From Candidatus Alistipes avistercoris (GTDB lineage Bacteria > Bacteroidota > Bacteroidia > Bacteroidales > Rikenellaceae), in contig DXEE01000037.1 in NCBI GenBank assembly GCA_019115075.1, positions 5,097-69,096 of the forward strand: DNA of 64,000 nucleotides, given 5' to 3'. The notes under the pieces are model-generated. The model searched no databases, had not been told where the DNA came from, and was given only the letters and a program-made list of their open reading frames with translations. The translations under genes and the position numbers were made by a program. Below, piece by piece: positions 12,422 through 41,137 of the stretch; position 1 is the first letter of the stretch, and each line of letters opens with the position of its first letter.

Positions 12422-13237
12422 TTATTTGACGAAAAGGACCGTCACGGTGGTGATCAGCGAGACGAGCGACATCCAGAAGGTGGCCGAGAGTACGTTGTTG
12501 CCGTTCACCGTGGACTGGCGGGCCCGCATCGAGTTCGGTTCGACGTATACGACATCGTCCTGCTGCAGGTAGTATACCGGCGAGTTGTAGAGTTGCTCGG
12601 CCGACCGCAGATCGACGCCGTAGACGCGTTGCTGCCCCTCCACCTCGCGCAGGACGAGCACCTTGTCCCGCTTGCCGAAGATGGTCATGTCGCCGGCCAT
12701 GCTGAGGGCTTCCAGCAGCGTGATGTAGTCCTTGTCGATGCTGTATCGTCCGGGATTTGCCACTTCGCCGAGCACCGAGACGGTGAGGTTCATGAATTCG
12801 ACCGTCACGACCGGATCCTTGATGAGGTTCTGGCTGATGAGTTCGCTTTTGATGTGTGCGGCGATCTCCTCGCGGGTCATGCCGGCCACGTAGACACTGC
12901 CCAGCACGGGAAAGTCGATCGTGCCGTCCTGACGGACCGTATAGCCCGAGATCCCCTGGGAAGAGGAGCCGGCACCTGAATTTTTGGTACCCAGTTGCCG
13001 GGATACGATCGGCAGGTTGAACAGGTCGGCCAGAAGCGGGTCCTTGCTGTTCACGATAATCGAGATCTTGTCTTCGGGCTGTACCTTGACGGTGACCGGG
13101 GTTATCCCCTGGGTGATCTGTTCTCCGGGGCGGACATCCTGAAAATAGGTGATTCGTTCGGTTGAGGCGCACGAACTCAATAGTGCGGCGAGAGAGAACA
13201 TCAGCAGAAAGGCAGGGATTTTCATAATCGAATTCAT
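12422..13237 (-). CDS. wza: outer-membrane polysaccharide export protein (Wza / Poly_export + SLBB), copy 1
   Basis: Signal peptide with Cys (LLSSCAS), then Poly_export-like and SLBB-like sequence (PGRYSIDKDYITLLEALSMAGDMT). Confidence 0.85.
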   Translation of the reverse strand: MNSIMKIPAFLLMFSLAALLSSCASTERITYFQDVRPGEQITQGITPVTVKVQPEDKISIIVNSKDPLLADLFNLPIVSRQLGTKNSGAGSSSQGISGYTVRQDGTIDFPVLGSVYVAGMTREEIAAHIKSELISQNLIKDPVVTVEFMNLTVSVLGEVANPGRYSIDKDYITLLEALSMAGDMTIFGKRDKVLVLREVEGQQRVYGVDLRSAEQLYNSPVYYLQQDDVVYVEPNSMRARQSTVNGNNVLSATFWMSLVSLITTVTVLFVK

Positions 13238-13704: not shown

Positions 13705-13734
13705 GAAAAAAGGAGAATCGAAATCGATTCTCCT
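13705..13734 (-). terminator. intrinsic terminator closing the S24-ABC unit
   Basis: AGGAGAATCG (13711-13720) / CGATTCTCCT (13725-13734). On the minus strand a T5 run (13710-13706) follows. It sits 65 nt after the ABC transporter stop. Confidence 0.65.
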
Positions 13735-13798
13735 TCGGATTTCGTTCCCGGTCGGATGCCGGCCCTCGTCCAGCCGTGCGGTTGCCGCTCGGAAGAGC

Positions 13799-15457
13799 TC
13801 ATCGGGTTCGGTCCGATTTTCTTATCCGGATTACCGAATTGCAGAAACGTGCGACCGTATCCCGGTGGGTTACCAGGATAAGCGTCTTTCCATGCAGCCT
13901 GAGGGCGAGGCGCTGCAGGAGCATCTGTTCGGTCGGTTCGTCGAGTGCCGAGGTCGGTTCGTCCAGCAGCAGAATGCCTCCGGGGCGAAGCAGTCCCCGG
14001 GCAATGGCGATGCGTTGTGCCTGTCCTTCACTGAGGCCTGCGCCCTGTTCGCCGCACCGTGTGTTCAGCCCGTCGGGCAGGGACAGAACAAAATCCGCTG
14101 CTGCGGAGTGCAGTGCGGTTTCCATCTGCTCTTCCGTGGCCTGCGGGTTCCCCATCCGCAGATTGTCGCGTATGGTCCCGCTCATCAACGTGTTGCCCTG
14201 CGGTACGTAGGACAGGTTGCATCGTGTGAGCGGAGAGGCGCCTGCTTCACGGGTTGCGTCATAGAATCGGATGGAACCCTTGTCCGGTTGGAGCAGGGCG
14301 AGAATCAACCGGATCAACGTACTTTTCCCGGCACCGGTTTCCCCGATGACGGCAGTCATGCTGCCCGGGGGAAAATCGTGTGAGAAATCGTCGAGTACGA
14401 TCCGACTGCTGCCCGGATAGGTATAGGAAAGGTGCTCGATGCGGATTCCTGGAGTGTGGCTGAGCCGCTGTCGGGTGCCATGCTCTTCCAGCTGTAGAAA
14501 GGTCAGTTCCGCCAGGCGTTCTGCAGCGGTGAAAACCCGGACGAATGCGGGAATATGGCGGCTCAAATCCACCATCGGCCGCTGGATCTGTGCGACCAGT
14601 TGGAGAAATGCCGCCATCATGCCGAACGTCACGGACCCGTCACGCAATCCGAATACGCCCCACAGCAGGGCTGCGGCATAACCGGCCATGAAACCTGCCT
14701 GGACCATCGCCCGGGAGAAGATCGAGAAATCGGTGCGTCGCATGACCCGCTCTTGCAGGTTCGACTGCAGTTCCGTGAGGCGGGCGATGGCCTGTTCCGT
14801 ATATTCGAGCGTGCGGATTAGGATGCGGTGTTGCAGGTGCTCCTGCATGTGGCTCTGGATGGCGCTGTCCGTGTCGCGGATCTCGTGCGACATCCGGCGC
14901 ATCCGCCTCATGTAGCTTTTGCTGAAGAGCAGGGCGACGGGCATGATGAAGACCAGTATGCCGGCCAGGCGCACATCCAGCCGCGCAAGGAAAAACAGAG
15001 CCCCTCCCAACTGGAAAACGGTAATGAAAACGGCGGGAACGGTTCGGCTCAGGGCATCGGTGACGGTCGCCACGTCTTCCTCCAGCCGGTTGAGCAGGTC
15101 TCCCGTATGGAGGGCCTCCCGACCCGACCAGCGGCTCTCCATCAGGTGGATGAACAGGCGGCGATGCAATTCGTTGCGGAGGCTGATCTCCGTGCGGGCA
15201 GCCAGACGGGCTCTTGCCGCCGAGAGCAGTAGCTGGGCGGTAAGACTGCATGCCAGCCATCCCGTGTATGTGGACAGACCGTCGTCCGAAGGCCCGGTGG
15301 CGATATCGATCAGGTGTTTGCACACGTATACGAAAAACAGGGAGACGCCGACATGCAGCACTCCCGTCGATATGCAACCGACGACCGACAGCCGAAACCC
15401 TTCGGATGCGTGCCACAGCCATTTGGCGCACTCCCGTATCCGTATCGACGCCCTCAT
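13799..15457 (-). CDS. ABC exporter, fused permease + ATPase
   Basis: Six-helix N-terminal TMD, Walker A (GETGAGKST), signature (LSEGQAQRIAIARG) and Walker B (ILLLDEPTSALD). Trimmed to the ATG at 15457, which overlaps the S24 peptidase stop (ATGA). No C39 peptidase domain. Confidence 0.85.
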   Translation of the reverse strand: MRASIRIRECAKWLWHASEGFRLSVVGCISTGVLHVGVSLFFVYVCKHLIDIATGPSDDGLSTYTGWLACSLTAQLLLSAARARLAARTEISLRNELHRRLFIHLMESRWSGREALHTGDLLNRLEEDVATVTDALSRTVPAVFITVFQLGGALFFLARLDVRLAGILVFIMPVALLFSKSYMRRMRRMSHEIRDTDSAIQSHMQEHLQHRILIRTLEYTEQAIARLTELQSNLQERVMRRTDFSIFSRAMVQAGFMAGYAAALLWGVFGLRDGSVTFGMMAAFLQLVAQIQRPMVDLSRHIPAFVRVFTAAERLAELTFLQLEEHGTRQRLSHTPGIRIEHLSYTYPGSSRIVLDDFSHDFPPGSMTAVIGETGAGKSTLIRLILALLQPDKGSIRFYDATREAGASPLTRCNLSYVPQGNTLMSGTIRDNLRMGNPQATEEQMETALHSAAADFVLSLPDGLNTRCGEQGAGLSEGQAQRIAIARGLLRPGGILLLDEPTSALDEPTEQMLLQRLALRLHGKTLILVTHRDTVARFCNSVIRIRKSDRTR

Positions 15458-15933
15458 GGATTGCCTGTCGTTTTTGCAGTCTGTCGTCTCATCAGCCGTC
15501 GGCATATGAACAGCAATTCCCTCCGTACCGGCAGCAGCAATCTCCAGACCGTAGCTCGAAACCTTTCCGGGCGGGATGAACAGTCTATCGCACGGCCGTT
15601 GCGGATGATGCGTACAACCGTTGCCAGCACCTCATCCTTGCGGCACTGTTCCACGGCTTGGAGGTTGCTGTCTCCCATCAGCGCAAGGCGCTCCCCTTCT
15701 ATCTGATAGATACGATGCAGTATATAACCTTTCGAGTGCAGCCGAACCAGTACGATATCCCCTGCCGCAATCCGTCCGACCCTGTGTAGCACCACCTGGT
15801 CGCGGCCGTTGGCAATGAAAGGAAACATGCTGTCCCCGCTGGCCCGCAGTGTAACGGACTCTCCTTCGGATAACAGTTTGAGACACTCCTCGAGAAAGAG
15901 GCTATTGTCCAGCAGAAGTTTTTCAGCCTGCAT
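15454..15933 (-). CDS. S24 (LexA/signal-peptidase-like) family serine peptidase
   Basis: RASGDSMFPFI nucleophile motif plus a downstream SKGYILHRI Lys region. The start is set at the ATG at 15933 because the longer ORF (to 16011) runs through a perfect 14-bp hairpin. Confidence 0.7.
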   Translation of the reverse strand: MQAEKLLLDNSLFLEECLKLLSEGESVTLRASGDSMFPFIANGRDQVVLHRVGRIAAGDIVLVRLHSKGYILHRIYQIEGERLALMGDSNLQAVEQCRKDEVLATVVRIIRNGRAIDCSSRPERFRATVWRLLLPVRRELLFICRRLMRRQTAKTTGNP

Positions 15934-16078: not shown

Positions 16079-17275
16079 TTATTTCTTGTTTCGGGTGATC
16101 ACGGCACGGCTCATGCTCGGATCGTCATAGAACATGTTTCCGACTCCGCCCTTGTATTCGATCTCGAGTTGCGACTTGTTCACTCCGAACTCCTTGACCA
16201 GACACTTGTATACGGCTTCGGCGCGGGCCTTGCTTAACCGGTCGTTGCCTTTCTCGCTGCCCGTGCCGGCGTCGGCATATCCGGTGATCGTATATACGGC
16301 CGACGGATCGCCCTGCTTGATGACTTCGGCCATCATGCCGAGATTGACGCGGGCTTCGTTCGAGAGATCGCTTCTGTCGATCTGGAACGTCACCAGATTG
16401 GCCGATGCGATCTGTTTTACGATGATCTGCGCCTCTTGCTGGTTGCCCTTGGCAAGAGCCTCCTCCAGTCGGGCGTTCTCCTCGCTCAGTTTCTCCAAAC
16501 GCTCACGCATGGCATTGATCTGCCCGGCATTGTACACCGTGCGGGTCACTTTTTTGCTGCGGTTCCACCCACGGGGCTTGATCTTGTAGGAGAACCCGAT
16601 GGTTGCAGCCAGCAGGCCTTCGCCGCTGCGGCCTCCCGATTCCCCGTCGAACTCGTCGCTGACGAGCGTGCCGCGGATATCCAGGTTCAGGTCCCAACCG
16701 GCGCTGAGACGGAATGTGTTCAGTACACCGATGTGTCCCGAGGCATCGACCCGTTTGGGATCCTGCGTCGCTTTCATCAGACCTACGCCGGCGTAGGGAA
16801 TGCAGTTGTAGAATCTGTTCTCCTTGTATCCGCTGATGATGTTGGAGAAGTTGAACATGGCGTCGAGATGGAAGTTGTAGTAATTGAACTTCGACTTGTA
16901 GAGGCCCTCGCCCCATCCGTCTACCTGCTCACCGGTCGAATGTGCCGCTCCCCAGCGGGTGGCTCCCTTGATGGAGAGTCCGTTGTATCCGAACCGTACG
17001 CCGATATCGGGCGAGAACCACTTGCCGATGGCTATGTCGAGGGCCGGGGAGAGCCGTTGTCCGAACGGTATCTGCTTGTCGTGGTCGCCGAAGAAGATCT
17101 GTGCGCCGCCGCCTACGCTGACTACCCAGTTGCTCCAGAATCCGTTTGTCTCGACCTTGTGTTTGTCCGTGCTGTATTCCACGGTTTCCGTGATCTCGGC
17201 ATCCTGCTCCGTTTGAGCGTATACCGAACCTGCAGCCACAAGAAAGAGGACTGCCAATAGTATTTTCTTGTTCAT
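16079..17275 (-). CDS. OmpA-family outer-membrane protein (beta-barrel + coiled coil + OmpA_C)
   Basis: Signal peptide (MNKKILLAVLFLVAAGSVYAQ), aromatic-rich barrel region, coiled coil (MRERLEKLSEENARLEEALAK) and a C-terminal OmpA-like peptidoglycan-binding domain (TITGYADAGTGSEKGNDRLSKARAEAV). Confidence 0.85.
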   Translation of the reverse strand: MNKKILLAVLFLVAAGSVYAQTEQDAEITETVEYSTDKHKVETNGFWSNWVVSVGGGAQIFFGDHDKQIPFGQRLSPALDIAIGKWFSPDIGVRFGYNGLSIKGATRWGAAHSTGEQVDGWGEGLYKSKFNYYNFHLDAMFNFSNIISGYKENRFYNCIPYAGVGLMKATQDPKRVDASGHIGVLNTFRLSAGWDLNLDIRGTLVSDEFDGESGGRSGEGLLAATIGFSYKIKPRGWNRSKKVTRTVYNAGQINAMRERLEKLSEENARLEEALAKGNQQEAQIIVKQIASANLVTFQIDRSDLSNEARVNLGMMAEVIKQGDPSAVYTITGYADAGTGSEKGNDRLSKARAEAVYKCLVKEFGVNKSQLEIEYKGGVGNMFYDDPSMSRAVITRNKK

Positions 17276-17360: not shown

Positions 17361-19424
17361 TCAGTTGGTTTTGCGCTGCATCCGGTATTTGTAGTTGTTG
17401 TCGATGATGGCCTGAGGCAGCAGGTCGCCGTAAACCGTATAGCCTGTGTAGTCCTGGCAAACACGGTCGCCCACATAATCCAGCAGTACGATGCCAGTGG
17501 ATCCCGGGGTGCGGTTCTCGTTCATCAGGTAGTTGTATACCGGAAGGTTTACCTCCTGTCCCAGACGTGCATAGGCCGACGAAATGGCCGACCCTCCGGC
17601 GTATCCGGAGCAGTGGTTGATCGTCCAGACGTGGGAGCCCTTTGCCGCCTCGTCGCGGGCGAGATCCAGATATCTCTCCACCGATGCGATTTTGGCGGAG
17701 ATGGATGCATCGACGTTGGACTCGTTGTTTACCTCATAGTAATTCTGGCAATAGAGGATCCAGTCCGTGTGGTGTCCCCACTGGTCGTTCCCGTAATCGA
17801 CATACTGCTCTTTCAGATAGGCCTGCTGGGTGCCCTCCGCATGCGAACCGGGGAAACCGGAAACGAACATCATGCCCGACGGGGCGGTATTGGTGAAATA
17901 GCCATCCGGGTCAGTCCCCTGGTTGGGCCGCATGATGCTCAGAATCTTGCCCCGTGCTTCGCCTATGGTGAGGTCTTTCTTGCAGAGCGACCGCGGCAAT
18001 GCATGGCTCGTGTAGGTCGAGGTTCCCACAAAGTTGTTCATCGCCTTGTTGAACCGACTTTCGGCATTTATTACGGCAAGCCTTTCAGACTCCCATCTTA
18101 TGATGGTTATGATAAATTCTCCGGGATGCTCATTTAGGAACGTATTAAAGGCCTCATATACTTCCTTAAGATCGATATTGCAACTTGCTACACCATGGTA
18201 AATGGGAAGGGCATTGTCGTTTTCCACCAAAAACATCGAAGCCGCCGGTCTTAAATCAAAGCAGCGGATACCCATCTCCAGCTGTTCGGCAATCGTTCGG
18301 GTCTGGCACTTGCCGGAGCTCAGATCGCACGCTCTTGTTGCGGCATCGTGCGTACCCGGGATGGAGAGTTGCGATACATAGATGTCGTCGTCCAGCGGAG
18401 TCATCCAGAGGTTGCCCGTTGCCTCCGTGGGGAACCACGGCAGGGTCAGCTTGGTTTTCGAGCCGGCAGCCAGGTTGATGGGGTTTCCGTTTGCATCCAT
18501 ATTGCCGCCGATGGTTACCTCCTGTACCGTTTCGCCGGTTGCATGGACACGGACCGTTACGGGGTTCTCCGCATCGATAGGCAGCGGCGGCAGGAAGACG
18601 GTGAGCGTAACGGACTGTCCTGCTTCCAGGTCGATGTGGTAATTGTCGCCCTGCTTGACCCGGACGAATGTTGTCTCGGTGTGAGAGACTCCGGTATTGC
18701 CCGCGTTTACGATCGTCCCGTTGGCTATGTCGTACTGGAATTTGCCCTGTCCTGCATCGGGTGACTGCACGTTGTTGTTGATGATGCTGATACCCGTTAT
18801 GGTGACGGTCTCCATGTTGGTGGTTTCACGGCCGCGGACCGTCACTTTGAGCGTGGTCATGATCGGATCGAAGTGCAGCGGCACCTCGTCGATCGGTGTG
18901 GTGGCGAGATGGGCGACCATGTAGGCATTGGTCATGTCGGGAGTACCCATATAGTTTCCGTTTCCGTCGGGCGTTGTGGGAAGCTCGCAGACCTGGTCCA
19001 GATTGATGCTGAACGAGGCGATTCCGTCAGCGACGCTTACCTTGTTGTTGTCTGCGGGATAGACGGCGAAAAAGTTGTGGGTGATGTTGTCTCCGCCCCA
19101 GGCCAATCCTGATTCATTGTACTGAAGCTTGCCTGCATGCTCCTTGTCGGGATCAATCGACTTGATTACCGTGTAGTCGGCCTGTTTCACATCTTCGGCC
19201 TCGTTGCAGAAGATCCGGATCTTGTCCCCGTTGTTCCAGTTGATCTGGAACTCGTTCTCATCATCGTACTCGGTGCGTGTCGTTGTATTGCTCAATGCGA
19301 AGTTCACGGTTGCACCGCTGGTCGGTTTGTTGCCATGTCCGTTGTCAAGATCATCGCTGGAGCATCCGCTGAAGGCTCCGGCGATTGCCAATCCTGCACA
19401 CAGGACTCCAAAATACTGTTTCAT
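17361..19424 (-). CDS. surface lipoprotein: fimbrillin-like N-terminal half fused to a PI-PLC X-domain (PLC-like phosphodiesterase)
   Basis: Trimmed to MKQYFGVLCAGLAIAGAFSGCSSDD (lipobox). The N-terminal half is typical of Bacteroidales fimbrillin-like proteins. The C-terminal half carries LSIPGTHDAATRA...IRCFDLRPA, the PI-PLC X-box catalytic signature. Confidence 0.75.
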   Translation of the reverse strand: MKQYFGVLCAGLAIAGAFSGCSSDDLDNGHGNKPTSGATVNFALSNTTTRTEYDDENEFQINWNNGDKIRIFCNEAEDVKQADYTVIKSIDPDKEHAGKLQYNESGLAWGGDNITHNFFAVYPADNNKVSVADGIASFSINLDQVCELPTTPDGNGNYMGTPDMTNAYMVAHLATTPIDEVPLHFDPIMTTLKVTVRGRETTNMETVTITGISIINNNVQSPDAGQGKFQYDIANGTIVNAGNTGVSHTETTFVRVKQGDNYHIDLEAGQSVTLTVFLPPLPIDAENPVTVRVHATGETVQEVTIGGNMDANGNPINLAAGSKTKLTLPWFPTEATGNLWMTPLDDDIYVSQLSIPGTHDAATRACDLSSGKCQTRTIAEQLEMGIRCFDLRPAASMFLVENDNALPIYHGVASCNIDLKEVYEAFNTFLNEHPGEFIITIIRWESERLAVINAESRFNKAMNNFVGTSTYTSHALPRSLCKKDLTIGEARGKILSIMRPNQGTDPDGYFTNTAPSGMMFVSGFPGSHAEGTQQAYLKEQYVDYGNDQWGHHTDWILYCQNYYEVNNESNVDASISAKIASVERYLDLARDEAAKGSHVWTINHCSGYAGGSAISSAYARLGQEVNLPVYNYLMNENRTPGSTGIVLLDYVGDRVCQDYTGYTVYGDLLPQAIIDNNYKYRMQRKTN

Positions 19425-19447: not shown

Positions 19448-19627
19448 TTAATCCCATGAATCCAACTCGAACGAACCCCCATTCTCCTGTTGGTTGATAT
19501 CGACATTGGCTTTTTCGTCGTCCTGGACGACTTTGTCCTTGGAGGAGGCACAGATGCCGCTTTCCAGGCTTACCTGAGTCCTCGTGGTCCGCGGAGACTC
19601 GTACGTTCCGTTTTTCTTTTTTTCCAT
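19448..19627 (-). CDS. small hydrophilic acidic protein (59 aa), hypothetical
   Basis: MEKKKNGTYESPRTTRTQVSLESGICASSKDKVVQDDEKANVDINQQENGGSFELDSWD. It is preceded by a strikingly AT-rich 63-nt spacer, its third codon positions look GC-biased like neighbouring genes, and it stops 23 nt before the lipoprotein ATG. No homolog recognised. Confidence 0.35.
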   Translation of the reverse strand: MEKKKNGTYESPRTTRTQVSLESGICASSKDKVVQDDEKANVDINQQENGGSFELDSWD

Positions 19628-19690: not shown

Positions 19691-22030
19691 TCATTTTTTT
19701 TTCGATTTTTTCCCGTATCCGTACCCATATCCGTAACGTCCGTAACCGTAACCGGTCCGGGTCGGATCGACTCCGTTGAGTACCAGGGCCATGTTTTTCA
19801 GTTTCCTGCCTTCGTACATGGCTTCGATGTCGGGCAGCTGGCGCCGGTCGAGCCGTCCTGCCCGAATGACGAAGATCGTCAGATCGGCGATGCGGTTGGC
19901 GATGCTGGCATCGGCAATGATACCGACCGGGACGTTGTCGGCGATGATCAGGTCGTAGCGGCTGCGCAGCGCGTCGAACAGTTCGTCCAGACGGCTGTCC
20001 ATCAACAGTTCGGCCGGGTTGGGAGCCGTTGCGCCGAACGATATGACATCGAAATGTTCGCGGTGCTGGATGATTTCGTCCACCGTCACCGACGGATCAG
20101 CCAGGTAATTGGTGACTCCCGTCCTGCGGATCCCGAAATGACGGCTCAACGTGCCCTTCCGGATGTCCAGATCGACAAGCACCTCCCGCTTTTTGGCATA
20201 GACGAAACTCATGGCCAGATTGCTGGCGATGAAGGTTTTGCCGGCGCCCTCGTTGAACGAGGTGAATGTGATGACCTGCGATGGCCGGTCCTTGCGCGAC
20301 ATGAAGGCCATGTTGGTCCTTAGAACGCGGAATGCTTCAGCCACGATACCGTCCTCGTCCGTTTTGTCGGTGTCGGCATCTCCTCTTTTCCGGCGTTTGC
20401 CTGCTTCGCGGTCCAACGGAATCTCGCCGAGAAAGGGTACGCTCAGCGCCTTTTCGACCTCCTTGCGGCTGCGGACCCGTGTGTCCATGAAAAGTACGGT
20501 CAGACACGATACTCCCGGAATGGCCAGTCCGACGATCAGACCCAGCAGCAGAATGCGGTTGCGGTTGGGCGATATCGGCTGCGTACTGCCTTCGGCTCCG
20601 TCGATGACGCGGGCGTTGTTGTCGGCCATCGCCTGCGACAGGGCATTCTCCTCGCGTTTGTTGAGCAGGTACAGATACAGGGTCTCCTTGATCTTTTGCT
20701 GCCGTTCGATGGAGAGCATCTGACGCTCTTTGGTCGGGATGGAGGTCACGCGGTCCTGCGCCTGCAGTTCGCGGCTTTGTGCGTCGTTGCGTTTTACGTT
20801 CAGCGTCACGATCATGTTGTCCACGGCGCGGATGATGTTCTGCTTCATGGCCCGCAGGGAGTTGTTCAGTTCCTGGACGACCGGGTTGTTTTCGCTGCTG
20901 TCATCCACCAGAGCGTCGCGTTTGAGTTTGGCCGTATTGTAGAGACTGATCTGGCTCTCGATGTTCATGTCGCCGATTCCCGTGTTGGAAGGGATCAGGT
21001 CGGTGTCCTTGGTCGGATCGGTCAGGTAGTCCTTGATGAATTGGGCCAGACGGAGCTGCGTCTCCAGTTCCAGGGCGTCGATGCTGTATTTTTGCGATTC
21101 GGTCATGTACATCCCCGCCGACGAGGCGATGTCTACGATCTGGTTCCGCTGTTTGAACGACTCGAGGTCTGACTCCACGCTGCCCAGTTCGCTCTCGATG
21201 ATGATCAGACGCTCGTTGATGAAATCGGCCGTATTGATCGCCACCTGGTTCTTGTCCCGTATGGCCTCTTCGTTATAGACGAAGATGAGCGTGTTGAGTA
21301 CATCTTCGGCCCGGGCCGCCGAGTTGTCCTTCAGGGCAAGGGTGAGGATGGATGACTCCTCCTCTTCCTGCTGTATTCCCAGAGCTCCCCGGTAATAGTT
21401 CACCATCGACTCCAATGAGAACTTGCGGACCCGGATGGGGATGTTCTGCCAGGAGGCTCCGTAGTAATTGGTCGGTGTTGCGACGACGCGCATTCCTTTG
21501 CTGATCTCCACCGTGTCGTTCAGGGAAACGGTACGGCTGGTTCCGTCGCCGATTCCGGAGCATTCGGACAGCTCGACCGTGTTTTTGTCCTTCGGGGTTA
21601 CGGTCAGAGAGAACCGCTGTTCGGGCAGGGCGTCCGGGAAACTCAGAAGTACGGGCGACTGGGTGTAGAGTTCATTGAGGCGCAATCCCTCCTCGACCTG
21701 ATAACTCACATCGGCATGGAGGCGCTGCACCACCTCGCGCATAAGCTTCTTGGAGCGGAACTGCAGGATTTCGTTGGCGACGTTCACTTTATTGATGATG
21801 TTGTCGAAACGGTCCAGTCCCGTGGTGGAGGTTTTGTTGGACGGGTCCTTGATGATGACGGTCGCCGAACGGTAGTAGACGAAAGGCGAACGGGCGTAGT
21901 TGAACCATGCGATCCCGACGCATACGGCGATCGACAGGGCGAACCATCTCCATTTGGAGACAAGGTATACGATCAGGTCCATCAGGTTGAGACCCTGATC
22001 GTTCCCAGCGGTTGAGGTGTTGGTCTGCAT
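19691..22030 (-). CDS. wzc: polysaccharide co-polymerase / BY-kinase (Wzc type), copy 2
   Basis: Same architecture as copy 1: Walker A (SFNEGAGKTF) and a C-terminal Tyr cluster (GYGYGRYGYGYGYG). Confidence 0.9.
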   Translation of the reverse strand: MQTNTSTAGNDQGLNLMDLIVYLVSKWRWFALSIAVCVGIAWFNYARSPFVYYRSATVIIKDPSNKTSTTGLDRFDNIINKVNVANEILQFRSKKLMREVVQRLHADVSYQVEEGLRLNELYTQSPVLLSFPDALPEQRFSLTVTPKDKNTVELSECSGIGDGTSRTVSLNDTVEISKGMRVVATPTNYYGASWQNIPIRVRKFSLESMVNYYRGALGIQQEEEESSILTLALKDNSAARAEDVLNTLIFVYNEEAIRDKNQVAINTADFINERLIIIESELGSVESDLESFKQRNQIVDIASSAGMYMTESQKYSIDALELETQLRLAQFIKDYLTDPTKDTDLIPSNTGIGDMNIESQISLYNTAKLKRDALVDDSSENNPVVQELNNSLRAMKQNIIRAVDNMIVTLNVKRNDAQSRELQAQDRVTSIPTKERQMLSIERQQKIKETLYLYLLNKREENALSQAMADNNARVIDGAEGSTQPISPNRNRILLLGLIVGLAIPGVSCLTVLFMDTRVRSRKEVEKALSVPFLGEIPLDREAGKRRKRGDADTDKTDEDGIVAEAFRVLRTNMAFMSRKDRPSQVITFTSFNEGAGKTFIASNLAMSFVYAKKREVLVDLDIRKGTLSRHFGIRRTGVTNYLADPSVTVDEIIQHREHFDVISFGATAPNPAELLMDSRLDELFDALRSRYDLIIADNVPVGIIADASIANRIADLTIFVIRAGRLDRRQLPDIEAMYEGRKLKNMALVLNGVDPTRTGYGYGRYGYGYGYGKKSKKK

Positions 22031-22049: not shown

Positions 22050-22850
22050 TTATTTGAGTACCCACAGGATGGAGCATACGGCCGTTATGACGGACAGCAG
22101 CGTGCGTCCGATCTCCCAGCCCCGGCTCTGGGTGTCTCTGCGGTAGTATTTCTTGTCCATCTCCACATAGACGATGTCGTTTTGCTGGAGATAGAAACAG
22201 GGGGAGTCGAAGATTTCCCGGCTGCGCAGGTCGTGCATGAAGATCTGCCGGCCTCCGTCCATTTCGCGGATGACAGCCACCCGGTCCACCCGGGCTTTCG
22301 AGGTCAGGTCTCCGGCTTTGGCGATGGCTTCGAGCAGCGTCACCCGGTCTCCGTCGGCCGTGAAGGTGCCGTTGTGTCCGACTGCCCCCATGACGGTGTA
22401 TCTGAAATTCAGGAATTCGATCGATACCAACGGATCCTTCATGTAGTTGCCCTCTTCGATCCGGGTTTTGATCAGGTCCCGGACCTCGCTGACCGTCATG
22501 CCGTCCACGTGCAGTTTGCCCAGGATGGGAAAGTCGATGTCGCCCTCCACGTCCACGCGGTATCCGGTCTCCCGCACCTTGCTCGGCGATTCGGTGTTCA
22601 CGTCGCCGTCGGCACCCACGCGGAAGGTTTCGCCGTAGATGTTGAACGGGATGGCAAGTTCGGGATTCTTGCAGCTCACCGTGATGCTCAGCCGGTCGTC
22701 CCGGTGAATGGTGGCCTCATACCGGGTGTCGATGGGATAGTTCTCCCCCACCTGCATGTCCTGCAGATAGACGTAGTTTTTGCGCGAGCAGGAGGGTGCC
22801 AGCAGCAATACGACAAGCAGGCTTGCCCATAGGCAGAATGATTTGTTCAT
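22050..22850 (-). CDS. wza: outer-membrane polysaccharide export protein (Wza type), copy 2
   Basis: Lipoprotein-type signal (LLLAPSCS) and Poly_export/SLBB-like sequence (GTFTADGDRVTLLEAIAKAGDLT). Confidence 0.85.
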   Translation of the reverse strand: MNKSFCLWASLLVVLLLAPSCSRKNYVYLQDMQVGENYPIDTRYEATIHRDDRLSITVSCKNPELAIPFNIYGETFRVGADGDVNTESPSKVRETGYRVDVEGDIDFPILGKLHVDGMTVSEVRDLIKTRIEEGNYMKDPLVSIEFLNFRYTVMGAVGHNGTFTADGDRVTLLEAIAKAGDLTSKARVDRVAVIREMDGGRQIFMHDLRSREIFDSPCFYLQQNDIVYVEMDKKYYRRDTQSRGWEIGRTLLSVITAVCSILWVLK

Positions 22851-22858: not shown

Positions 22859-23773
22859 TCAGTGTTGTTGTTTCATTGGTTGCCGGATCTTGAGCAGGCT
22901 CCGGTAGCAAAGGATGGCCGCATCGCTGTCCGGACGGCATTCGAGTATGCCGGTCGGCACGCGTTCGGCCAGGCGTACCAGCGTATCGTAGAGGCGAGCC
23001 CGCAGATCCTGATCCTGGCTGATGACCGAACACCCCGGATAGAGGGCGACGAAAGCGTCGGCTCCTTCCTGCCTGTGGAACCTGTTCTCCGGGGCCTGGA
23101 TCAGCCGCACCATGCCGCCGATGGGGAAACTCTGCGGTTTGTAGCAAGGGGTCTTCCCACTCCATGGGGTTCCGTGGGCGTAGGCCGTATCGCCCTGGAT
23201 GCGGATGGTCGGATTGTCGTCGTTGAGCAGTTCGGTGCCGGGCAGATGGCGTAGCCAGAGAGCCGAGTGGGTGCTTTTCCCCGTACCGCTTCGCCCCATG
23301 AAGAGAAAGGCCTCGCCGTTCCGGGATACGGCCGATGCATGGAATGCCAGTGCGTCGTGGTAGAGAATGGCCTGTGAATAGGCGATCCGCAGCAGCGAGG
23401 AGAGTACGTGTCCGGCATCTTCGTCCCGTGGAGAGATTCCGATCCGGATTTGTGTGAAGGAGTTGTCGGCCCGCATGACATGGTCCTGCCCGTCCGGCCT
23501 GGTACGCAGCCTGACTTCGTATTGTCCGGCCCGGAAGAAGAGGCGTACCGATCCCAGGTCATTGACCGTCTCCTCCAGCAACGAACCGGTCTCCTCTTCC
23601 CGACAAGTCTCGGAGTTGGTGCCGACCGTACATGCGAACAGTTGCGGTGTGCCTTTCCGCGGATTGCAGGCAAACGGCCTGAAGGAAGGCAGCAGGGCCC
23701 CGGCGTCCCACCCTTCCGGAAGTTGCACGGACAGGATGAATCCGGCTATGCAGAAACGGAGCGTTTTCATCAT
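22859..23773 (-). CDS. HPr-kinase-related P-loop kinase (HprK C-terminal-domain-like)
   Basis: FHASAVSRNGEAFLFMGRSGTGKSTHSALWL P-loop followed by ELLNDDNP, as in the HprK/P catalytic domain. Trimmed to the ATG at 23773, overlapping the upstream stop (ATGATGA). Confidence 0.75.
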   Translation of the reverse strand: MMKTLRFCIAGFILSVQLPEGWDAGALLPSFRPFACNPRKGTPQLFACTVGTNSETCREEETGSLLEETVNDLGSVRLFFRAGQYEVRLRTRPDGQDHVMRADNSFTQIRIGISPRDEDAGHVLSSLLRIAYSQAILYHDALAFHASAVSRNGEAFLFMGRSGTGKSTHSALWLRHLPGTELLNDDNPTIRIQGDTAYAHGTPWSGKTPCYKPQSFPIGGMVRLIQAPENRFHRQEGADAFVALYPGCSVISQDQDLRARLYDTLVRLAERVPTGILECRPDSDAAILCYRSLLKIRQPMKQQH

Positions 23774-24867
23774 CCGAGTTGTCCTTTGGCCAGATCCGCA
23801 AAGATCCAGAATGCCTCTTTGGGAGCGTATGCGGCTGCAAAACGCAGGTTTCGGCAGAACGAACGGGCCGTATGCATTTTGTGTATCCAACCGGGCCGGC
23901 CGCCTGTCTCCCTGTCCGACCGGTACTGGCCGAAGTTGCCGCCCTTCCATACGATGTCGAGCAGAACACGAGCATCCGGTGCCGTCTCTTCATAAGGCAG
24001 ACAGGCGGCCGGGAGCCCGAGACAATCCACCAGAAAGGCGTGCAACAGCGGATTCCATCGGGCAAGGCCCCATCTCCGGCAATAGTTCTTCATCTCCTCG
24101 GGGTTCACCTCCCGGTGCAACCGGTAGCAGGCTCGCGCCATGTCGCACAGTTGCCGCAGCCCGATTCCCCTGCCCAACGTGTGTTTGAGAATATGCAGGT
24201 CCAGAAGCAGCAGGTTCAGAAACGGGGAGGGAACCGTCATCGGCTCCAATTCCTGCGCGAGCCGCATGTGGATACAGCCCTTTGTGCGGGCCAGTTTATC
24301 CGCTTCGTGTTGCAGGAACGGATTGTGCAGATCCAACAGGCGTACATGATGTTCGACCTCCAGACCGTGCCAGAGGTAGAAGATGCTCCGGTCCGGCATC
24401 TTGCGAATCCGTATTCCGTTCTGCCGCACGAGCTGTTCGGCTCGTTTGGCCGCCTCCGGATCCTGAAAGCACAGGTCGATGTCTCCGCATTCACGCAGCA
24501 AGGGGGATTCGTAGAGACAGGCCACACCCTGCCCTTTCTGCAGAACAGGGTCGATTCCCTGGGCCCGGAATTCGCCGTAGAGCTCCGAGAGCGCGCGATT
24601 CATCTCCAGATTCCTGCGCTCGATGGCATCCACTCTTGCCGTCCAACGGATCAGCAGGGAGTCTGTCGGCAGCATCGTATCGGGCAGATACTGCATTCCC
24701 CGGAACACGATACCCGTTACGGTTTGTCGTCGGGCCTGCCGGAACAGCTTTTCCCACTCGTCGTCCGACAGGGGGAAACATGCGGGGTCGTCTATTTCGC
24801 GCTCCCACAGCCCCGAACGCAGAATGGCCAGCAATGCGGTATGTATTTTCCTTTCCGGTGCGTCCAT
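23770..24867 (-). CDS. uncharacterised nucleotidyltransferase family protein (NTP_transf_5-like)
   Basis: GDIDLCF (GxDxD-type pol-beta NTase motif) in a protein of about 365 aa. The sequence resembles the PF14907-type proteins that accompany PqqD/HprK-like genes. Trimmed to MDAPERK at 24867. Confidence 0.7.
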   Translation of the reverse strand: MDAPERKIHTALLAILRSGLWEREIDDPACFPLSDDEWEKLFRQARRQTVTGIVFRGMQYLPDTMLPTDSLLIRWTARVDAIERRNLEMNRALSELYGEFRAQGIDPVLQKGQGVACLYESPLLRECGDIDLCFQDPEAAKRAEQLVRQNGIRIRKMPDRSIFYLWHGLEVEHHVRLLDLHNPFLQHEADKLARTKGCIHMRLAQELEPMTVPSPFLNLLLLDLHILKHTLGRGIGLRQLCDMARACYRLHREVNPEEMKNYCRRWGLARWNPLLHAFLVDCLGLPAACLPYEETAPDARVLLDIVWKGGNFGQYRSDRETGGRPGWIHKMHTARSFCRNLRFAAAYAPKEAFWIFADLAKGQLG

Positions 24868-24887
24868 TGGCTCTCCTCCGACCGGAA

Positions 24888-25169
24888 TCAATCGATAAGA
24901 CCGAACGTCCGCCATTCGGACAATTGCCGCTCCACGTCTCGGAGGGCCGTGTCGGGATCGACTCCGAACGTCCGGCTCAACCGGTCCGTCAGCTCCTCCG
25001 TCGTACAACCGTCCTCCGCTATCTGTTCCCACAGCCAGGCAGCCGTGCGGTTCAGGCTGTATACGTTGCTCATGTTCACATTTCCGGCGCAGGCTTCAAC
25101 GATCATGTATTGATTGCCGATCCTGCGCAACATCAATCCGGCTTTTGCGCGTATCCTGCTCGAAGTCAT
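24888..25169 (-). CDS. PqqD-family protein (RiPP recognition element-like)
   Basis: 93 aa. LRRIGNQYMIVEA...VYSLNRTAAWLWEQI...TEELTDRLSRTFGVDPDTALRDVERQLSEW matches the PqqD winged-helix pattern. Confidence 0.75.
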   Translation of the reverse strand: MTSSRIRAKAGLMLRRIGNQYMIVEACAGNVNMSNVYSLNRTAAWLWEQIAEDGCTTEELTDRLSRTFGVDPDTALRDVERQLSEWRTFGLID

Positions 25170-25175
25170 TGCCTT

Positions 25176-25850
25176 TTAGAATTTCTTCCCCGAGAGAATC
25201 GAAACGACCGTCAGGTAGATGATCTTCAGGTCCAGCCAGAAGGTGCGGTTGTAGAGATAGTCCAGATCCATCCTGAGGCGTTCGAGCATCTTGTCCATTG
25301 TATCGGTATACCCGTTGTACAACGTGGCGAGGGAGAAGAGCCCGGGACGCAGCCGGTACAGCAGTTCGTAGTTGGCGTTGATGGACGTAATCTGGTCCAC
25401 GAAGAACTTGCGTTCGGGACGGGGGCCCACAAAACTCATTTTGCCGGTCAGGACGTTCCACAGTTGAGGCAGCTCGTCCAGATGATGTTCGCGCAGGAAT
25501 CGTCCGATGCGGGTGAGCCGTTCGTCGTCCTTCCTGCACAGAACGGGATGTCCGTCCTGTTCCGAGGAGACCTCCATCGAGCGGAATTTGTAGAGCGTGA
25601 ACGGCCGGCCTCCGTATCCGATCCGCTCCTGTTTGAATATGGCCGGACCTCCGTCTTCGTGTTTGATCAACAGATAGATGGCTGCAAACGCGGGCGAAAA
25701 TACGATCAGTCCCAGTATGCTGCCGAACAGGTCGAACGAACGTTTGGCGAAAGCAGCCCACTTCGTCATCTCGCCTCGGTGGCGGCAATCGCGGGCGGTC
25801 AAGCCTACGTCAATGGCCTCGACGATGAATTTTGTCGAATCACTTCTCAT
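25176..25850 (-). CDS. undecaprenyl-phosphate sugar phosphotransferase (Bac_transf, initiating enzyme)
   Basis: FKRSFDLFGSILGLIVFSP...GPAIFKQERIGYGGRPFTLYKFRSM...LDELPQLWNVLTGKMSFVGPRP. The true start may be the internal MTKW at 25769. Confidence 0.9.
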   Translation of the reverse strand: MRSDSTKFIVEAIDVGLTARDCRHRGEMTKWAAFAKRSFDLFGSILGLIVFSPAFAAIYLLIKHEDGGPAIFKQERIGYGGRPFTLYKFRSMEVSSEQDGHPVLCRKDDERLTRIGRFLREHHLDELPQLWNVLTGKMSFVGPRPERKFFVDQITSINANYELLYRLRPGLFSLATLYNGYTDTMDKMLERLRMDLDYLYNRTFWLDLKIIYLTVVSILSGKKF

Positions 25851-26958
25851 AACGATATAGTTTTAAACAATTCTCGATCATCCGTTTTTTTGAAAACAAC
25901 GTGTTGTAGCGCTCCCGGGCCCCCGACGCATAGCGTCGGTATGCCGCTTCATCCTCCATGATGGTTTCGATGGCTTTGGCCAGCTCCTGCGGGTTGCCCG
26001 GTGTGACATTGAGCCCCGACTCTCCGTGGGCATTGACCCAGGAGACTCCCGACCGGGGGATCCTGGTGGCAACGACGGGTTTGCCGCAGGACATGGCCTC
26101 GATCTGTACGATGCCGAACGCCTCGGTTTTCTGCACACTGCTCAGACAGAATACATCACAAGCCCCGTAATAGGAGGACAGTTCTTCATCGGCGATGCGG
26201 CCGAGCAGTTCGACCTTCCCCTGCAGTCCCAGGTTGTCAATCTCTTTTTCCAGGGGGTCTCTCAGGGGACCCGAACCGCCGATCAGCACGACATAGTCGT
26301 CGTTCAGATACCTGGCGGCAGCCACCAGATGGCGGAATCCTTTGTAGGCGACCAGCCGGCCCAGCGAAAAGACAATCTTCCGATTCCCGTAGCGGGTCCT
26401 GATCTTCTGCACGGCCTCGGGATCGGGCCGTATCGGATCCGTGCCTATGGGCAGGCAGACGGTCTTGGCCCGCACCTTGCGCAGAGAGGGCGATCCGTCC
26501 AGGTATGCGGGCGAGGTGCCCACAATCAGGTCGGCCCGGCGCAACAGCCAGGATTGCAACGGTTTGTAGAACTTCAGCAGAAACCGTTGCTTCTGGATGT
26601 CGCTGTGCCAGTGCAGGATCACCCGACCCCGGTAGTTTGACAGGAACAGAGCGAGACCGGCCATCGGATCGGGGTGGTGCACGTGGATGACGTGATACGT
26701 CCCGCAGGTTTTTCGCAGGGTGCGGATCATGGCCGGGGAGATCATTGTCGATGCCGCCTTGAACCAGCTGCGGCAGCAAATGATCCGGGCGTGTTCGTTT
26801 ACGGGGATGATGCCGCCGGAGCCCGTTGCTGCGGCGCACATCATGTCACAGTCTACATCTTGTTCGGACAACCCGATCATCAAATCGTACGCAACCTTCT
26901 CCACCCCACCGAGAATCGGATAAAATTTGCCCAACTGCAGAACTTTCGGATTCTTCAT
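25840..26958 (-). CDS. glycosyltransferase family 4
   Basis: Trimmed to MKNPKVLQLGKFYPILGGVEKV. Carries the GT-B EX7E region (TEAFGIVQIEAMSCGKPVVAT). Confidence 0.85.
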   Translation of the reverse strand: MKNPKVLQLGKFYPILGGVEKVAYDLMIGLSEQDVDCDMMCAAATGSGGIIPVNEHARIICCRSWFKAASTMISPAMIRTLRKTCGTYHVIHVHHPDPMAGLALFLSNYRGRVILHWHSDIQKQRFLLKFYKPLQSWLLRRADLIVGTSPAYLDGSPSLRKVRAKTVCLPIGTDPIRPDPEAVQKIRTRYGNRKIVFSLGRLVAYKGFRHLVAAARYLNDDYVVLIGGSGPLRDPLEKEIDNLGLQGKVELLGRIADEELSSYYGACDVFCLSSVQKTEAFGIVQIEAMSCGKPVVATRIPRSGVSWVNAHGESGLNVTPGNPQELAKAIETIMEDEAAYRRYASGARERYNTLFSKKRMIENCLKLYRYEK

Positions 26959-27019: not shown

Positions 27020-28075
27020 CTATTCAGCCTTTCTCGGTTTGCCTCCGGCAACCAGGGCCCGATGGGTTGCGATTACTTCCGGGTGGTTGCGGCGGATATA
27101 TCCGCTCACGCTGTTGTAGGTCAGCCCCAGCCGTGCGGCAATGGATTTCAGGTCTTCGGTCGTAGAACCGTACAGACGGATCGCTTCGGCATATTTCTCC
27201 TTGCTGCGGAGCAACAGGCGCCGTCCCTGTTCGTTCCGCATCATGCCCTGTTGTTCGGCCAGTTCGGGTTCGTGCTTGTGCAGGTATTCGCGGAAAACCT
27301 CCGGATGCAGACCGAACTCTGCGGCCGCTTTCGCAACCGAACGGGGGTGTTTCTTGAGGCTTTCGATCGCAGCCTCGTATTTTGCGGCAACGGTTTTCAT
27401 CCGTCGCCGCACGTTGTGCAGATCGACCGGCTCATCCGTTTCGGAAGATATTCCCGAACGATCCAGAACCAGATCCATGTGCCACTTGTGCAGGTAGGCG
27501 CACAGACCGCTCGGCGAAACGCCCGTTTTTCGGGCGATCTCCTTCATGGTTAGTGTCGTATCCCTGCAAAGGATAAATGCTTGCGCATATTTTTCCAGGG
27601 TCTTCGGATAAGGTACGTACCTGTGTCCGTTGCCGGACAGTTCGCCGTAAGCCTTTCGCTCCTTCTCCTGGGCCTTTTTTCGAACCTGCCGTTTCCGCTT
27701 GAGCAGATCATGGTGGTAGAAGCGGAGGTGTTGCCCGAATCCTCCCGATGAGACCCCGCACAATGCGGCGATCTCCGAAATACTCAGATCGCTGGTTTCG
27801 TACAGCTTGACGGCATCGGCATACTGTTTTTCGTATTTCGGCAGTAATCCTCGGGGGGTGTTGTCGTTGATTCCCATCCAGCGGCGCACCTCCTCCCGCC
27901 AGACGAGCGTCTGTGGAAAGTGCACCCGCATGAAGTTGGCCAGGGCCGGGCCTTTCAAACCGAATTTCCGGGCTACCTGCGACAGATTGCAGTCGATGTA
28001 GTCCATCGATCCGCACGCCGATACGGCATCCTTGTACTTCGCGTACGCATCCATCCGTACACCTTCCGTCTTCAT
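27020..28075 (-). CDS. protein made of five tandem helix-turn-helix-like repeats (hypothetical regulator)
   Basis: Five 60-75-aa repeats, each of the form YAxAIxLYxxTxLSxxEIAxxxGVSxxxfxxYLxxxHxxL. Examples: YADAVKLYETSDLSISEIAALCGVSSGGFGQHLRFYH and YAEAIRLYGSTTEDLKSIAARLGLTYNSVSGYIRRNH. No family recognised. Confidence 0.6.
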   Translation of the reverse strand: MKTEGVRMDAYAKYKDAVSACGSMDYIDCNLSQVARKFGLKGPALANFMRVHFPQTLVWREEVRRWMGINDNTPRGLLPKYEKQYADAVKLYETSDLSISEIAALCGVSSGGFGQHLRFYHHDLLKRKRQVRKKAQEKERKAYGELSGNGHRYVPYPKTLEKYAQAFILCRDTTLTMKEIARKTGVSPSGLCAYLHKWHMDLVLDRSGISSETDEPVDLHNVRRRMKTVAAKYEAAIESLKKHPRSVAKAAAEFGLHPEVFREYLHKHEPELAEQQGMMRNEQGRRLLLRSKEKYAEAIRLYGSTTEDLKSIAARLGLTYNSVSGYIRRNHPEVIATHRALVAGGKPRKAE

Positions 28076-34855: not shown

Positions 34856-35916
34856 GGGCGCGGACCTTGAATCGTTCGTTGCGGGAAACGGATCATCCTT
34901 TTCGCCCTTTTCAGCAGCCAGTGCCGCAACCGGGCCAGCCGCAATCGGCTCCGAAGTATCCGAATCCCCCAGGTTGCCGGCAGAAGGCAGATCGGAGCCC
35001 ATGCAAAGGTCGTGTTTCCGGACAATCTTTTTGCGGTTTCTCTTCTTCTTTCTTCCATGTCATACTCTTTCAGAATCCGTTTGCGATGAACATAATATTC
35101 ATCCAGTGACAGATAGCTGAGTGAGAGGTAAAACAGGAAGAGGCTCTTGCCTGCAAGGAATCTTTTCAGCCGGGGTTCTTCGACAGTTTCCGACAAGGAC
35201 CCGATCCGACTGCCTATGGCCAGCATGTCTCCGATGCGCCGGGGGGCAAAACGGTTCGATGCACTCTCCGCATGGACGGTATAGGCATAGAACTGCTCGT
35301 CGGACAGGTACATGCAGCGGTATTCATTCACCAACAGCCGGGACAGAAATTCCATGTCTTCCAGAAATATCCTCCCTGTTTCAAACCTCAACGTCCCGAT
35401 TGCCGATCTTTTGAACAGAATGAGCCACAGGAAGAACTCTCCGTGGATGGCGTATTCCAAAAATTCATAGGAACCGATAATCCGATCGGTATATGGTTTG
35501 CTCCTGTTGGATACACGAACCCGGTAAAGTGGACGGTTCGACCCGTCCACTGCCAGGTATTCGCCCCGGAGCATGTCGAGCCCATTGTTTTTTGCAATTC
35601 CGTACAGCCGTTCCAGAGCCTTGTCCGTTACCCAATAGTCGTCGGCGTCCGCAAAAATCACATATTCGCCCGTCGCCTGATCCAGGCCGAGGTTGCGGGC
35701 CGAACTGACCCCTCCGTTCTCCTGGTGCAATACCTTTATCCGGTTGTCCCGGACGGCATATTCGTCGCAGATCGCCCCCGAGCGGTCCGTGCTTCCGTCA
35801 TCGACCAACAACAGTTCGATGTCGGTGAAGCTTTGTGACAGGATGCTCTTAAGACACCGTTCGAGATAGGACTCCGTATTGTAGACCGGGATGATGACCG
35901 AGATTGCGGGTTTCAT
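34852..35916 (-). CDS. glycosyltransferase family 2
   Basis: ISVIIPVYNTESYLERCLKSILSQS...LVDDGSTD...FADADD motifs. Confidence 0.85.
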   Translation of the reverse strand: MKPAISVIIPVYNTESYLERCLKSILSQSFTDIELLLVDDGSTDRSGAICDEYAVRDNRIKVLHQENGGVSSARNLGLDQATGEYVIFADADDYWVTDKALERLYGIAKNNGLDMLRGEYLAVDGSNRPLYRVRVSNRSKPYTDRIIGSYEFLEYAIHGEFFLWLILFKRSAIGTLRFETGRIFLEDMEFLSRLLVNEYRCMYLSDEQFYAYTVHAESASNRFAPRRIGDMLAIGSRIGSLSETVEEPRLKRFLAGKSLFLFYLSLSYLSLDEYYVHRKRILKEYDMEERRRETAKRLSGNTTFAWAPICLLPATWGIRILRSRLRLARLRHWLLKRAKRMIRFPQRTIQGPRP

Positions 35917-35921
35917 GGCGG

Positions 35922-40138: not shown

Positions 40139-40163
40139 ATCTCCTTGTCGTTTGGTCGGGACG

Positions 40164-41098: not shown

Positions 41099-41137
41099 GG
41101 GGCTATGTTGTTAAAATATTTCACAATTAAGGCTTTT

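Follow-up and report, generated by a model that had tools for sequence, protein, structure and literature searches.

Capsules and exopolysaccharides (EPS) of Bacteroidota shape gut colonisation, phage resistance and interaction with the immune system, and the loci that encode them are usually read as sets of glycosyltransferases plus an export apparatus. We analyzed one such locus in Candidatus Alistipes avistercoris (Rikenellaceae, assembly GCA_019115075.1), on a stretch of 64,000 nt of contig DXEE01000037.1 (positions 5,097 to 69,096 of the forward strand; hereafter the window, to which all coordinates refer), where three genes of a kind known from peptide modification (hereafter the trio) lie among the genes for polysaccharide assembly and export. 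In the direction of transcription, they encode a 93-aa PqqD-family protein (24888–25169), which would serve as a leader-binding recognition element (RRE) of the type found with peptides that are made on the ribosome and modified after translation (RiPPs), a 365-aa nucleotidyltransferase-fold enzyme (NTase) of the NTP_transf_5 family (23770–24867), and a 304-aa P-loop protein (Kin, 22859–23773) with the fold of phosphoenolpyruvate carboxykinase (PEPCK) and HprK, a putative peptide Ser/Thr kinase.

All genes of the region are encoded on the minus strand, and the trio sits between the initiating sugar transferase and wza2. It is preceded by a GT4 glycosyltransferase (25840–26958) and the small phosphoglycosyl transferase Bac_transf (25176–25850; PF02397, 203 bits), and followed by the polysaccharide export protein Wza2 (22050–22850; Poly_export and SLBB domains) and the tyrosine autokinase/co-polymerase Wzc2 (19691–22030; GNVR and AAA_31 domains, TIGR01007 at 133.7 bits). 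The initial annotation, a model's reading of the letters and their open reading frames (ORFs), had placed the trio inside rather than beside the glycan operon, and the gene boundaries agree with this, as the three genes are tightly packed from Bac_transf to wza2. The PqqD start codon (ATG at 25169) is separated from the Bac_transf stop by 6 nt (25170–25175), the NTase gene begins 20 nt downstream of the PqqD ORF, and the Kin stop codon (22859–22861) ends 8 nt before the wza2 ATG at 22850. Positions 23770–23776 read tcatcat on the plus strand, i.e., ATGATGA on the coding strand, where the TGA of the NTase overlaps the ATG of Kin. The motifs GRSGTGKST and LLNDDNP in the Kin ORF and GDIDLCF in the NTase ORF are also present as originally reported.

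All reading frames of the trio are intact and translationally coupled. The mechanically derived ORFs are overlong (420 aa, GTG-started, for the NTase, and 363 aa), and gene calls on public contigs carrying identical proteins give the same three genes with 93/81, 365 and 304 aa. Long plus-strand ORFs across the trio (22.8–25.2 kb, up to 444 aa, e.g., 23779–25113) were rejected as antisense shadows of DNA with 59% G+C because they have no family matches and are absent from the public gene calls. An apparent NTase-Kin fusion of 673 aa in an ENA assembly (P0246, same cluster as the Kin of the window) was considered a frameshift or assembly artefact, its linker being an out-of-frame upstream extension of the Kin ORF.

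Family and fold assignments of the trio proteins

Matches to profile hidden Markov models (HMMs) were read against the cutoffs of the models (23.4 bits for PF05402, 31.2 for PF14907, 23.3 for PF00717, and 26.5 for PF01293 or TIGR00224). With 55.7 bits for PF05402, the 93-aa protein is PqqD-like, as proposed. A profile built from 20 of its orthologues and searched against the PDB retrieved TfuB1 (6jx3_B, E 1.1e-7), TbiB1 (5v1u, E 1.2e-3) and another lasso-peptide PqqD chaperone (E 0.011), with the PqqD of pyrroloquinoline quinone synthesis behind them (E 0.3). As far as such profile comparisons tell, the protein is closest to the B1 leader-binding proteins of lasso peptides, which, according to the TbiB1/TfuB1 work, reportedly bind their leaders through a YxxP(xL) motif. 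Among the curated NCBIfam models, the protein of the window remains below the cutoffs of both lasso B1 families (NF033530, 28.8 bits against 70; NF033536, 18.5 against 80) and of the HPr-rel-A chaperone (TIGR04353, 24.4 against 35).

The NTase reaches 138.7 bits with PF14907 and keeps the nucleotidyltransferase carboxylates. G128-D129-x-D131 (the GDIDL motif), H225, H229, R238, D242 and GNFG at 310–313 do not vary among 13 orthologues with identities as low as 25%, and neither the single sequence nor the profile gave a meaningful match to PDB sequences.

For Kin, an AlphaFold2 (AF2) model built from 24 homologues (pLDDT 88.6, pTM 0.88) was compared with the PDB using Foldseek, which retrieved PEPCK (E 2e-7) and the C-terminal domain of HprK/P (E 2.5e-5, target TM ~0.55), and this modelled fold places Kin in the PEPCK/HprK P-loop superfamily. 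H145, GxSGTGKST (160–168) and LLNDDNP (182–188) are invariant in the 24 homologues; the same arrangement of a His, a Walker A motif and an acidic pair is found in HprK/P. The label "HprK-like" given to Kin in the initial annotation therefore stands at the level of fold and superfamily, but not as membership in HprK/P or in the named HprK-related families: there is no Pfam Hpr_kinase match, the NCBIfam scores are far under the respective cutoffs (HprK_rel_A, 22.6 bits against 200; HprK_rel_B, 17.3 against 200; ScmC, 23.3 against 125), and the PEPCK model yields 18.3 bits against 26.5 with only 40 residues aligned. All of these scores (17–23 bits) are confined to the P-loop region, and the precomputed annotation of Kin is likewise a weak match to ScmC (PF27840).

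A Kin homologue from an uncultured Alistipes (WP_299101241.1 = P0241, 308 aa, 95% identical) carries the RefSeq name "phosphoenolpyruvate carboxykinase". We regard this name as an over-annotation, since only the P-loop fold is common to both and Kin has 304 aa compared to the ~530 aa of PEPCK; the name is likely to propagate, and we flag it as a recurrent mis-annotation. This close match and the G+C content of 59% both point to an Alistipes-like Bacteroidales origin of the window.

A probable transcription unit and a candidate precursor peptide

Downstream of wzc2, the same strand carries a small peptide gene (19448–19627), a lipoprotein gene (17361–19424), an OmpA-family gene (16079–17275; PF00691), an S24/S26-type peptidase of 159 aa (15454–15933) and an ATP-binding cassette (ABC) half-transporter of 552 aa (13799–15457; ABC_membrane and ABC_tran domains), with an overlap of 4 nt between its start and the stop of the peptidase gene. 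A terminator-like hairpin (13709–13736, minus strand; 12-bp stem followed by a T run) lies 63 nt past the ABC stop and is the strongest minus-strand site of this kind between 12 and 29 kb, with no comparable signal between 25850 and 13799. Gene overlaps, gaps of 4–20 nt and the single strong terminator after the ABC gene indicate co-transcription, so that the trio, wza2, wzc2, peptide, lipoprotein, ompA, peptidase and ABC genes look like one transcription unit. The peptidase and the exporter, which the initial annotation had overlooked, are part of the unit of the trio.

A gap of 561 nt lies between the ABC side, with its hairpin, and wza1, and the hairpin probably separates the trio-containing unit from a second one formed by wza1 (12422–13237), wzc1 (9964–12375) and a CpsB/CapC-type PHP tyrosine phosphatase (9229–9951). 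The locus has two Wza/Wzc pairs in total, and the phosphatase gene stands beside wza1/wzc1, with none beside wza2/wzc2.

The peptidase (PF00717, 31.2 bits), a putative leader peptidase, has archaeal-type signal peptidase I as its best NCBIfam match, and its motifs G.SM.PF, HR and L.GD.N are conserved in 33 orthologues. These would fit an active Ser/His enzyme of the signal peptidase type, as in the S26B enzymes, and the general base would be a His, not a Lys. According to NCBIfam, the exporter is similar to CydCD and MsbA as well as to type I secretion and bacteriocin exporters, and in other members of the phylum it is encoded inside the module, between NTase and Kin. A role as glycan flippase is unlikely, as another part of the locus holds a Wzx-like gene and the exporter accompanies the module also in loci that have no glycosyltransferase genes.

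The peptide gene, which the initial annotation had mentioned as a 59-aa ORF, starts 63 nt downstream of wzc2 and encodes a candidate precursor of 59 aa beginning with MEKKK; gene callers place the start at 19678, for a product of 76 aa. It belongs to a conserved family of small proteins found at the equivalent position in related loci: among 28 sequences with a mean identity of 27%, Y9, P12, E22 and S29 are invariant, and in a larger set of 262 members the Tyr is conserved in 100%, the Pro in 99%, E22 in 99%, S29 in 96% and a penultimate Trp in 90%. The invariant Tyr and Pro, three residues apart (YxxP), are followed by a strand-like V-x-h-E, which would fit the leader-binding mode described above for lasso B1 proteins, and the C-terminus has the conserved form F-x-h-x-W-[DENK]. 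A profile search in a library of 1.84 billion representative proteins recovered 421 representatives, all 53–93 aa long, and a six-frame search found a single copy in the window. No Pfam or NCBIfam family covers these proteins, whose members are unnamed or called "hypothetical"; they constitute a new small-protein family that current annotation ignores.

The gene that follows the peptide gene encodes, in all loci that have the peptide, a protein of 500–1100 aa, mostly with a lipoprotein-type N-terminus (one copy, in L025, is cut to 307 aa by the contig end). In the window this is a lipoprotein with a fimbrillin-like Mfa_like_1 domain and a PI-PLC-X domain. The catalytic-His motif SIPGTHD is kept in the lipoproteins of the window and of L036, and those of L004, L011, L015, L018, L023 and L082 read SIPGS... 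or SIPGTAN, which suggests that the latter copies are non-catalytic, binding versions. L004 has a second lipoprotein with an Exo_endo_phos domain, another phosphodiesterase fold.

A candidate for each generic role in a RiPP pathway (precursor, RRE, modifying enzymes, protease, exporter) is thus encoded in one transcription unit. We therefore read the trio, with a probability of roughly 0.5, as the enzymatic core of a RiPP-like pathway for peptide maturation and export that resides inside a capsule/EPS operon and has a surface or capsule role. The initial annotation had left two branches open, a peptide substrate encoded nearby or repurposing of the trio towards a glycan, a lipid or Wzc, and the first is now better supported by the YxxP family, the lasso-B1-like RRE, and the peptidase and exporter in the same unit.

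Taking the observed domain and fold identities, catalytic motifs, linkage and peptide conservation as a starting point, we infer the following biochemical steps, including which residue is modified, which group it receives and how the product relates to the polysaccharide. PqqD, as a lasso-B1-type RRE, would bind the N-terminal 25–30 residues of the 59-aa peptide via YxxP, and Kin would phosphorylate a Ser or Thr of the bound peptide, with the invariant Ser29 as the prime candidate. The NTP_transf_5 enzyme could then add a sugar or a nucleotide-derived group to the phosphate, in the way PsmN does for pseudomycoidin, after which the S24/S26-type peptidase would remove the leader and the ABC exporter would carry the product out of the cytoplasm, to the envelope. 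Once there, its partners may be the lipoprotein with the fimbrillin-like and PI-PLC-like parts, OmpA and the Wza2/Wzc2 system.

Arrangements of the module across Bacteroidota

Species counts were drawn from data with one genome per species. Kin homologues form 5733 clusters in the protein collection and occur in at least 594 species; those listed all belong to Bacteroidota, except for one metagenome-assembled genome (MAG) labelled Rickettsiales, and include Bacteroidaceae, Prevotellaceae, Muribaculaceae, Alistipes, Cryptobacteroides, Dysgonomonadaceae, Sphingobacterium, Pedobacter and Elizabethkingia. For the comparison of gene order, homologues of the window proteins were mapped onto 80 species loci (some tallies cover 86 loci), and the presence or absence of Wza, Wzc, GT4, Bac_transf and the peptide was scored within 10 kb of the module.

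Three arrangements were distinguished. Type A (39 of the 80 loci) matches the window and runs GT4 - Bac_transf - PqqD - NTase - Kin - Wza - Wzc; this order recurs at 31–60% protein identity, and the order of the trio genes is evidently not a matter of chance. Type B (7–8 loci from Sphingobacteriia, Flavobacteriia and some Bacteroidales) reads GT4 - S24 peptidase - PqqD - NTase - ABC exporter - Kin - Wza - Wzc. Type C (at least 19 of the 80) consists of free-standing modules, Kin - S24 peptidase - PqqD - (NTase) - (ABC), with neither Wza, Wzc, GT4 nor Bac_transf nearby, the NTase and/or the ABC exporter being detected in many of them but not in all. As Kin, peptidase, PqqD, NTase and exporter co-locate in three different gene orders, we consider these five genes a functional module. 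The peptidase co-locates with Kin in 43 of 86 loci, and the OmpA-family gene is conserved downstream in 32 of 86.

The capsule-linked role that the initial annotation argued for is upheld in part. Association with the capsule locus is genuine and ancient, as it spans Bacteroidia, Sphingobacteriia and Flavobacteriia, but it is not obligatory, since the type C modules occur without it. The same distribution bears on the second branch, in which the trio would have been repurposed towards a non-peptide, non-RiPP target of the capsule pathway, either by phosphorylation or nucleotidylation of a lipid-linked glycan or by control of Wzc2. In its favour, in three Bacteroidota classes the module belongs to the conserved "machinery" part of the loci (GT4, Bac_transf, Wza, Wzc), wza2/wzc2 lacks the CpsB-type phosphatase that accompanies wza1/wzc1, and HprK/P enzymes are bifunctional kinase/phosphorylases. 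Against it stand the type C loci, which keep Kin, peptidase and PqqD in the absence of all four capsule genes and thus disfavour Wzc or a glycan intermediate as a universal target, as well as the position of Bac_transf relative to the trio, which is not fixed (L022, L035, L038), and the RRE and the S24/S26 peptidase, both peptide-directed by family. We consider such repurposing unlikely.

GT4 is the most conserved neighbour of the module and surpasses even the trio in conservation: in all loci where the module is linked to Wza/Wzc, in Bacteroidales as well as in Sphingobacterium and Elizabethkingia, it is 53–70% identical. The free-standing modules lack GT4, and in capsule loci there may be a functional tie between GT4 and the module.

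Of the 25 type A loci whose downstream sequence spans 9 kb or more, 19 have the peptide and lipoprotein pair next to the module, and one more (L021) was recovered in the first-round search only. Counted over all arrangements, the peptide is present in 33 of 86 loci, including free-standing modules without Wza/Wzc (L050, L067, L071, L075) and a rearranged Sphingobacterium locus (L061); in L071 the order is peptide - lipoprotein - Kin - peptidase - PqqD - NTase in one uninterrupted string. In the reverse direction, three out of three contigs picked by the peptide, among them the contig of L008, have PqqD - NTase - Kin - Wza - Wzc at a distance of a few kb upstream.

Several findings weigh against the peptide pathway. 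The peptide adjoins the module mainly in the Bacteroidales arrangement: it was found in one of eight loci of the Sphingobacteriia/Flavobacteriia type and in 4 of 19 free-standing ones. In type B the locus stops after wzc without it, and most type C loci have none in the scored neighbourhood. A search for divergent peptides in type B and C loci with a regular expression and the broader 262-sequence HMM added only L065, L067 and L071. Where the peptide is absent, either it is encoded elsewhere in the genome or the substrate is a different one. Moreover, only one of the 262 family members ends in Ser, whereas the characterised lasso kinases act on a C-terminal Ser; Kin and PqqD are far below the cutoffs of all curated RiPP-associated families; and the deep conservation beside GT4, Wza and Wzc could mean a direct role in polysaccharide assembly.

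Part of this evidence could also be accommodated if the module matured and exported some other peptide or protein, with a substrate whose gene lies elsewhere or which forms a segment of a different protein, and the 59-aa peptide were tied only to the lipoprotein encoded after it. This would explain why most type B and C loci hold the full enzyme set with no detectable family member nearby, why the peptide gene is always coupled to the lipoprotein gene, and why the conserved C-terminus F-x-h-x-W-[DENK] is unlike what the known lasso kinases recognise. Yet a family as rare as this one (421 in 1.84 billion) is found close to the module in 33 of the 86 loci, four of which are free-standing without capsule genes, and the RRE encoded there is of the type to which an invariant YxxP corresponds. 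A different substrate appears rather unlikely.

Some genomes carry more than one copy of the module or of the peptide gene: contig CAXXSS010000001.1 has two complete type A loci (L042, L056), two peptide genes flank the locus L056 (548–760 and 18941–19135), and L027 and L077 come from one MAG, which hints at paralogous systems within single genomes.

Relation to known systems and features of the surrounding locus

The closest parallels to the proposed peptide pathway are the tailoring sets of lasso peptides. Lasso clusters of Firmicutes encode an HprK homologue that phosphorylates the precursor at its C-terminal Ser and an ABC transporter that exports the product (PMC8498205, PMC6993621), the DD pair of the kinase PsmK being essential (PMC6993621). 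PsmN, an "uncharacterised nucleotidyltransferase" for which the DxD is essential, then attaches one or two hexoses to this phosphate (PMC6993621, PMC8498205), and lasso clusters from the rumen commonly include genes for HPr kinase, PqqD and nucleotidyltransferase (PMC7533575). The module of the window is analogous to the sets of paeninodin (PadeK) and pseudomycoidin (PsmB1, PsmK, PsmN, PsmD) in having a discrete PqqD/B1-type RRE, a putative HprK-fold kinase with a DD pair, an NTase with DxD and an ABC exporter. It differs in the S24/S26-type peptidase, which takes the place of the transglutaminase-like B2 protease, in the lack of a cyclase, in the candidate peptide with an internal invariant Ser and a C-terminal W-[DENK] in lieu of a terminal Ser, and in its setting, a Bacteroidota host and a Wza/Wzc polysaccharide operon beside a fimbrillin-like lipoprotein. 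If the peptide pathway is correct, it extends lasso-type tailoring (RRE-guided phosphorylation of Ser and decoration by an NTase) to a cyclase-free pathway with another leader peptidase.

The absence of the lasso hallmarks was checked with Pfam families on called genes in positions 1–49.7 kb of the window and in the related loci inspected, and no cyclase (C) or B2 protease family was found. Such an inventory, in which the B1-like RRE, HprK-like kinase, NTP_transf_5 enzyme and ABC exporter correspond to the accessory set of Firmicutes lasso clusters while neither an Asn-synthase-like cyclase nor a transglutaminase-like protease is annotated, is also what an inactive remnant of a lasso cluster that lost its cyclase and B2 protease would leave. 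Decay of this kind is extremely improbable in view of the 5733 Kin clusters in at least 594 species, the catalytic motifs of Kin, NTase and peptidase that are invariant down to 25–35% identity, and the intact, translationally coupled reading frames.

HprK-related P-loop proteins are also paired with PqqD-family chaperones in the HPr-rel-A system of Haft (TIGR04352, TIGR04353) and in the SynChlorMet cassette (ScmC, TIGR04249/PF27840). The best NCBIfam matches of the PqqD and Kin of the window are to these HPr-rel-A/ScmC models, at 22–24 bits against cutoffs of 35–200, but the proteins are not members and have no radical SAM/SPASM partner. With HprK/P and ATP-dependent PEPCK, Kin has in common the P-loop fold with a His upstream of Walker A and a DD downstream, and it is set apart from HprK/P by a different N-terminal domain. 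The peptidase has its own counterpart in SipW of Bacillus subtilis, an ER/archaeal-type signal peptidase dedicated to matrix proteins and encoded in tapA-sipW-tasA. Both are small S26-like enzymes with the same Ser...His spacing and GDxN box, encoded in operons for extracellular surface or matrix material, but the peptidase of the window has no N-terminal membrane anchor, its candidate substrate has no Sec signal peptide, and its gene is coupled to an ABC exporter.

In an incomplete literature search, no description of a peptide module in capsule loci was found, and the terms PqqD + Wzc + Bacteroid* and NTP_transf_5 returned nothing. The parts of the module are of known kinds; their cyclase-free combination with an S24-type peptidase, the YxxP...S...W-D/E peptide family with its lipoprotein, and the residence in a conserved Wza/Wzc core throughout a phylum are undescribed in the literature found. 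That the module is found in the invariant part of loci from hundreds of species (Alistipes, Bacteroides, Prevotella, Muribaculaceae, Sphingobacterium and Elizabethkingia among them) suggests that surface polysaccharide biology involves a peptide, as component or regulator, that has so far gone unrecognised. A more specific version, which we hold to be improbable, makes the exported peptide, with a sugar or nucleotide group attached to Ser through a phosphodiester, a structural part of the surface polymer system, either as a primer or anchor that joins the Wza2/Wzc2 polysaccharide to the lipoprotein or as a donor-strand-like ligand of the lipoprotein through F-x-h-x-W-D/E; if true, this would be a peptide-dependent mechanism of capsule attachment or assembly specific to Bacteroidota.

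The surrounding locus resembles the UpxY-led, Wzx/Wzy-dependent capsule loci of Bacteroidales, with an integrase, a NusG/UpxY-like protein, a Wzx-like protein, a variable block of glycosyltransferases, Bac_transf, Wza and Wzc, to which the window adds the peptide-processing module and the peptide-lipoprotein pair in the conserved part. Its head (~35900–42340, minus strand) contains a tyrosine integrase (41138–42337), the NusG/UpxY-like gene (~40164–40733), an ORF of 143 aa, the 519-aa Wzx-like protein (38151–39710) and an Fer4/FrhB-like protein paired with a polysaccharide pyruvyl transferase, a layout that is that of a Bacteroidales capsule locus with a pyruvylated glycan. Amid the glycosyltransferase genes, positions 27020–28075 (minus strand) encode a 351-aa protein with repeated helix-turn-helix units (Sigma70_r4_2-like); as L004 has a different gene, AAA-ATPase_like/PDDEXK_9, at the matching position, this slot looks like a variable insertion.

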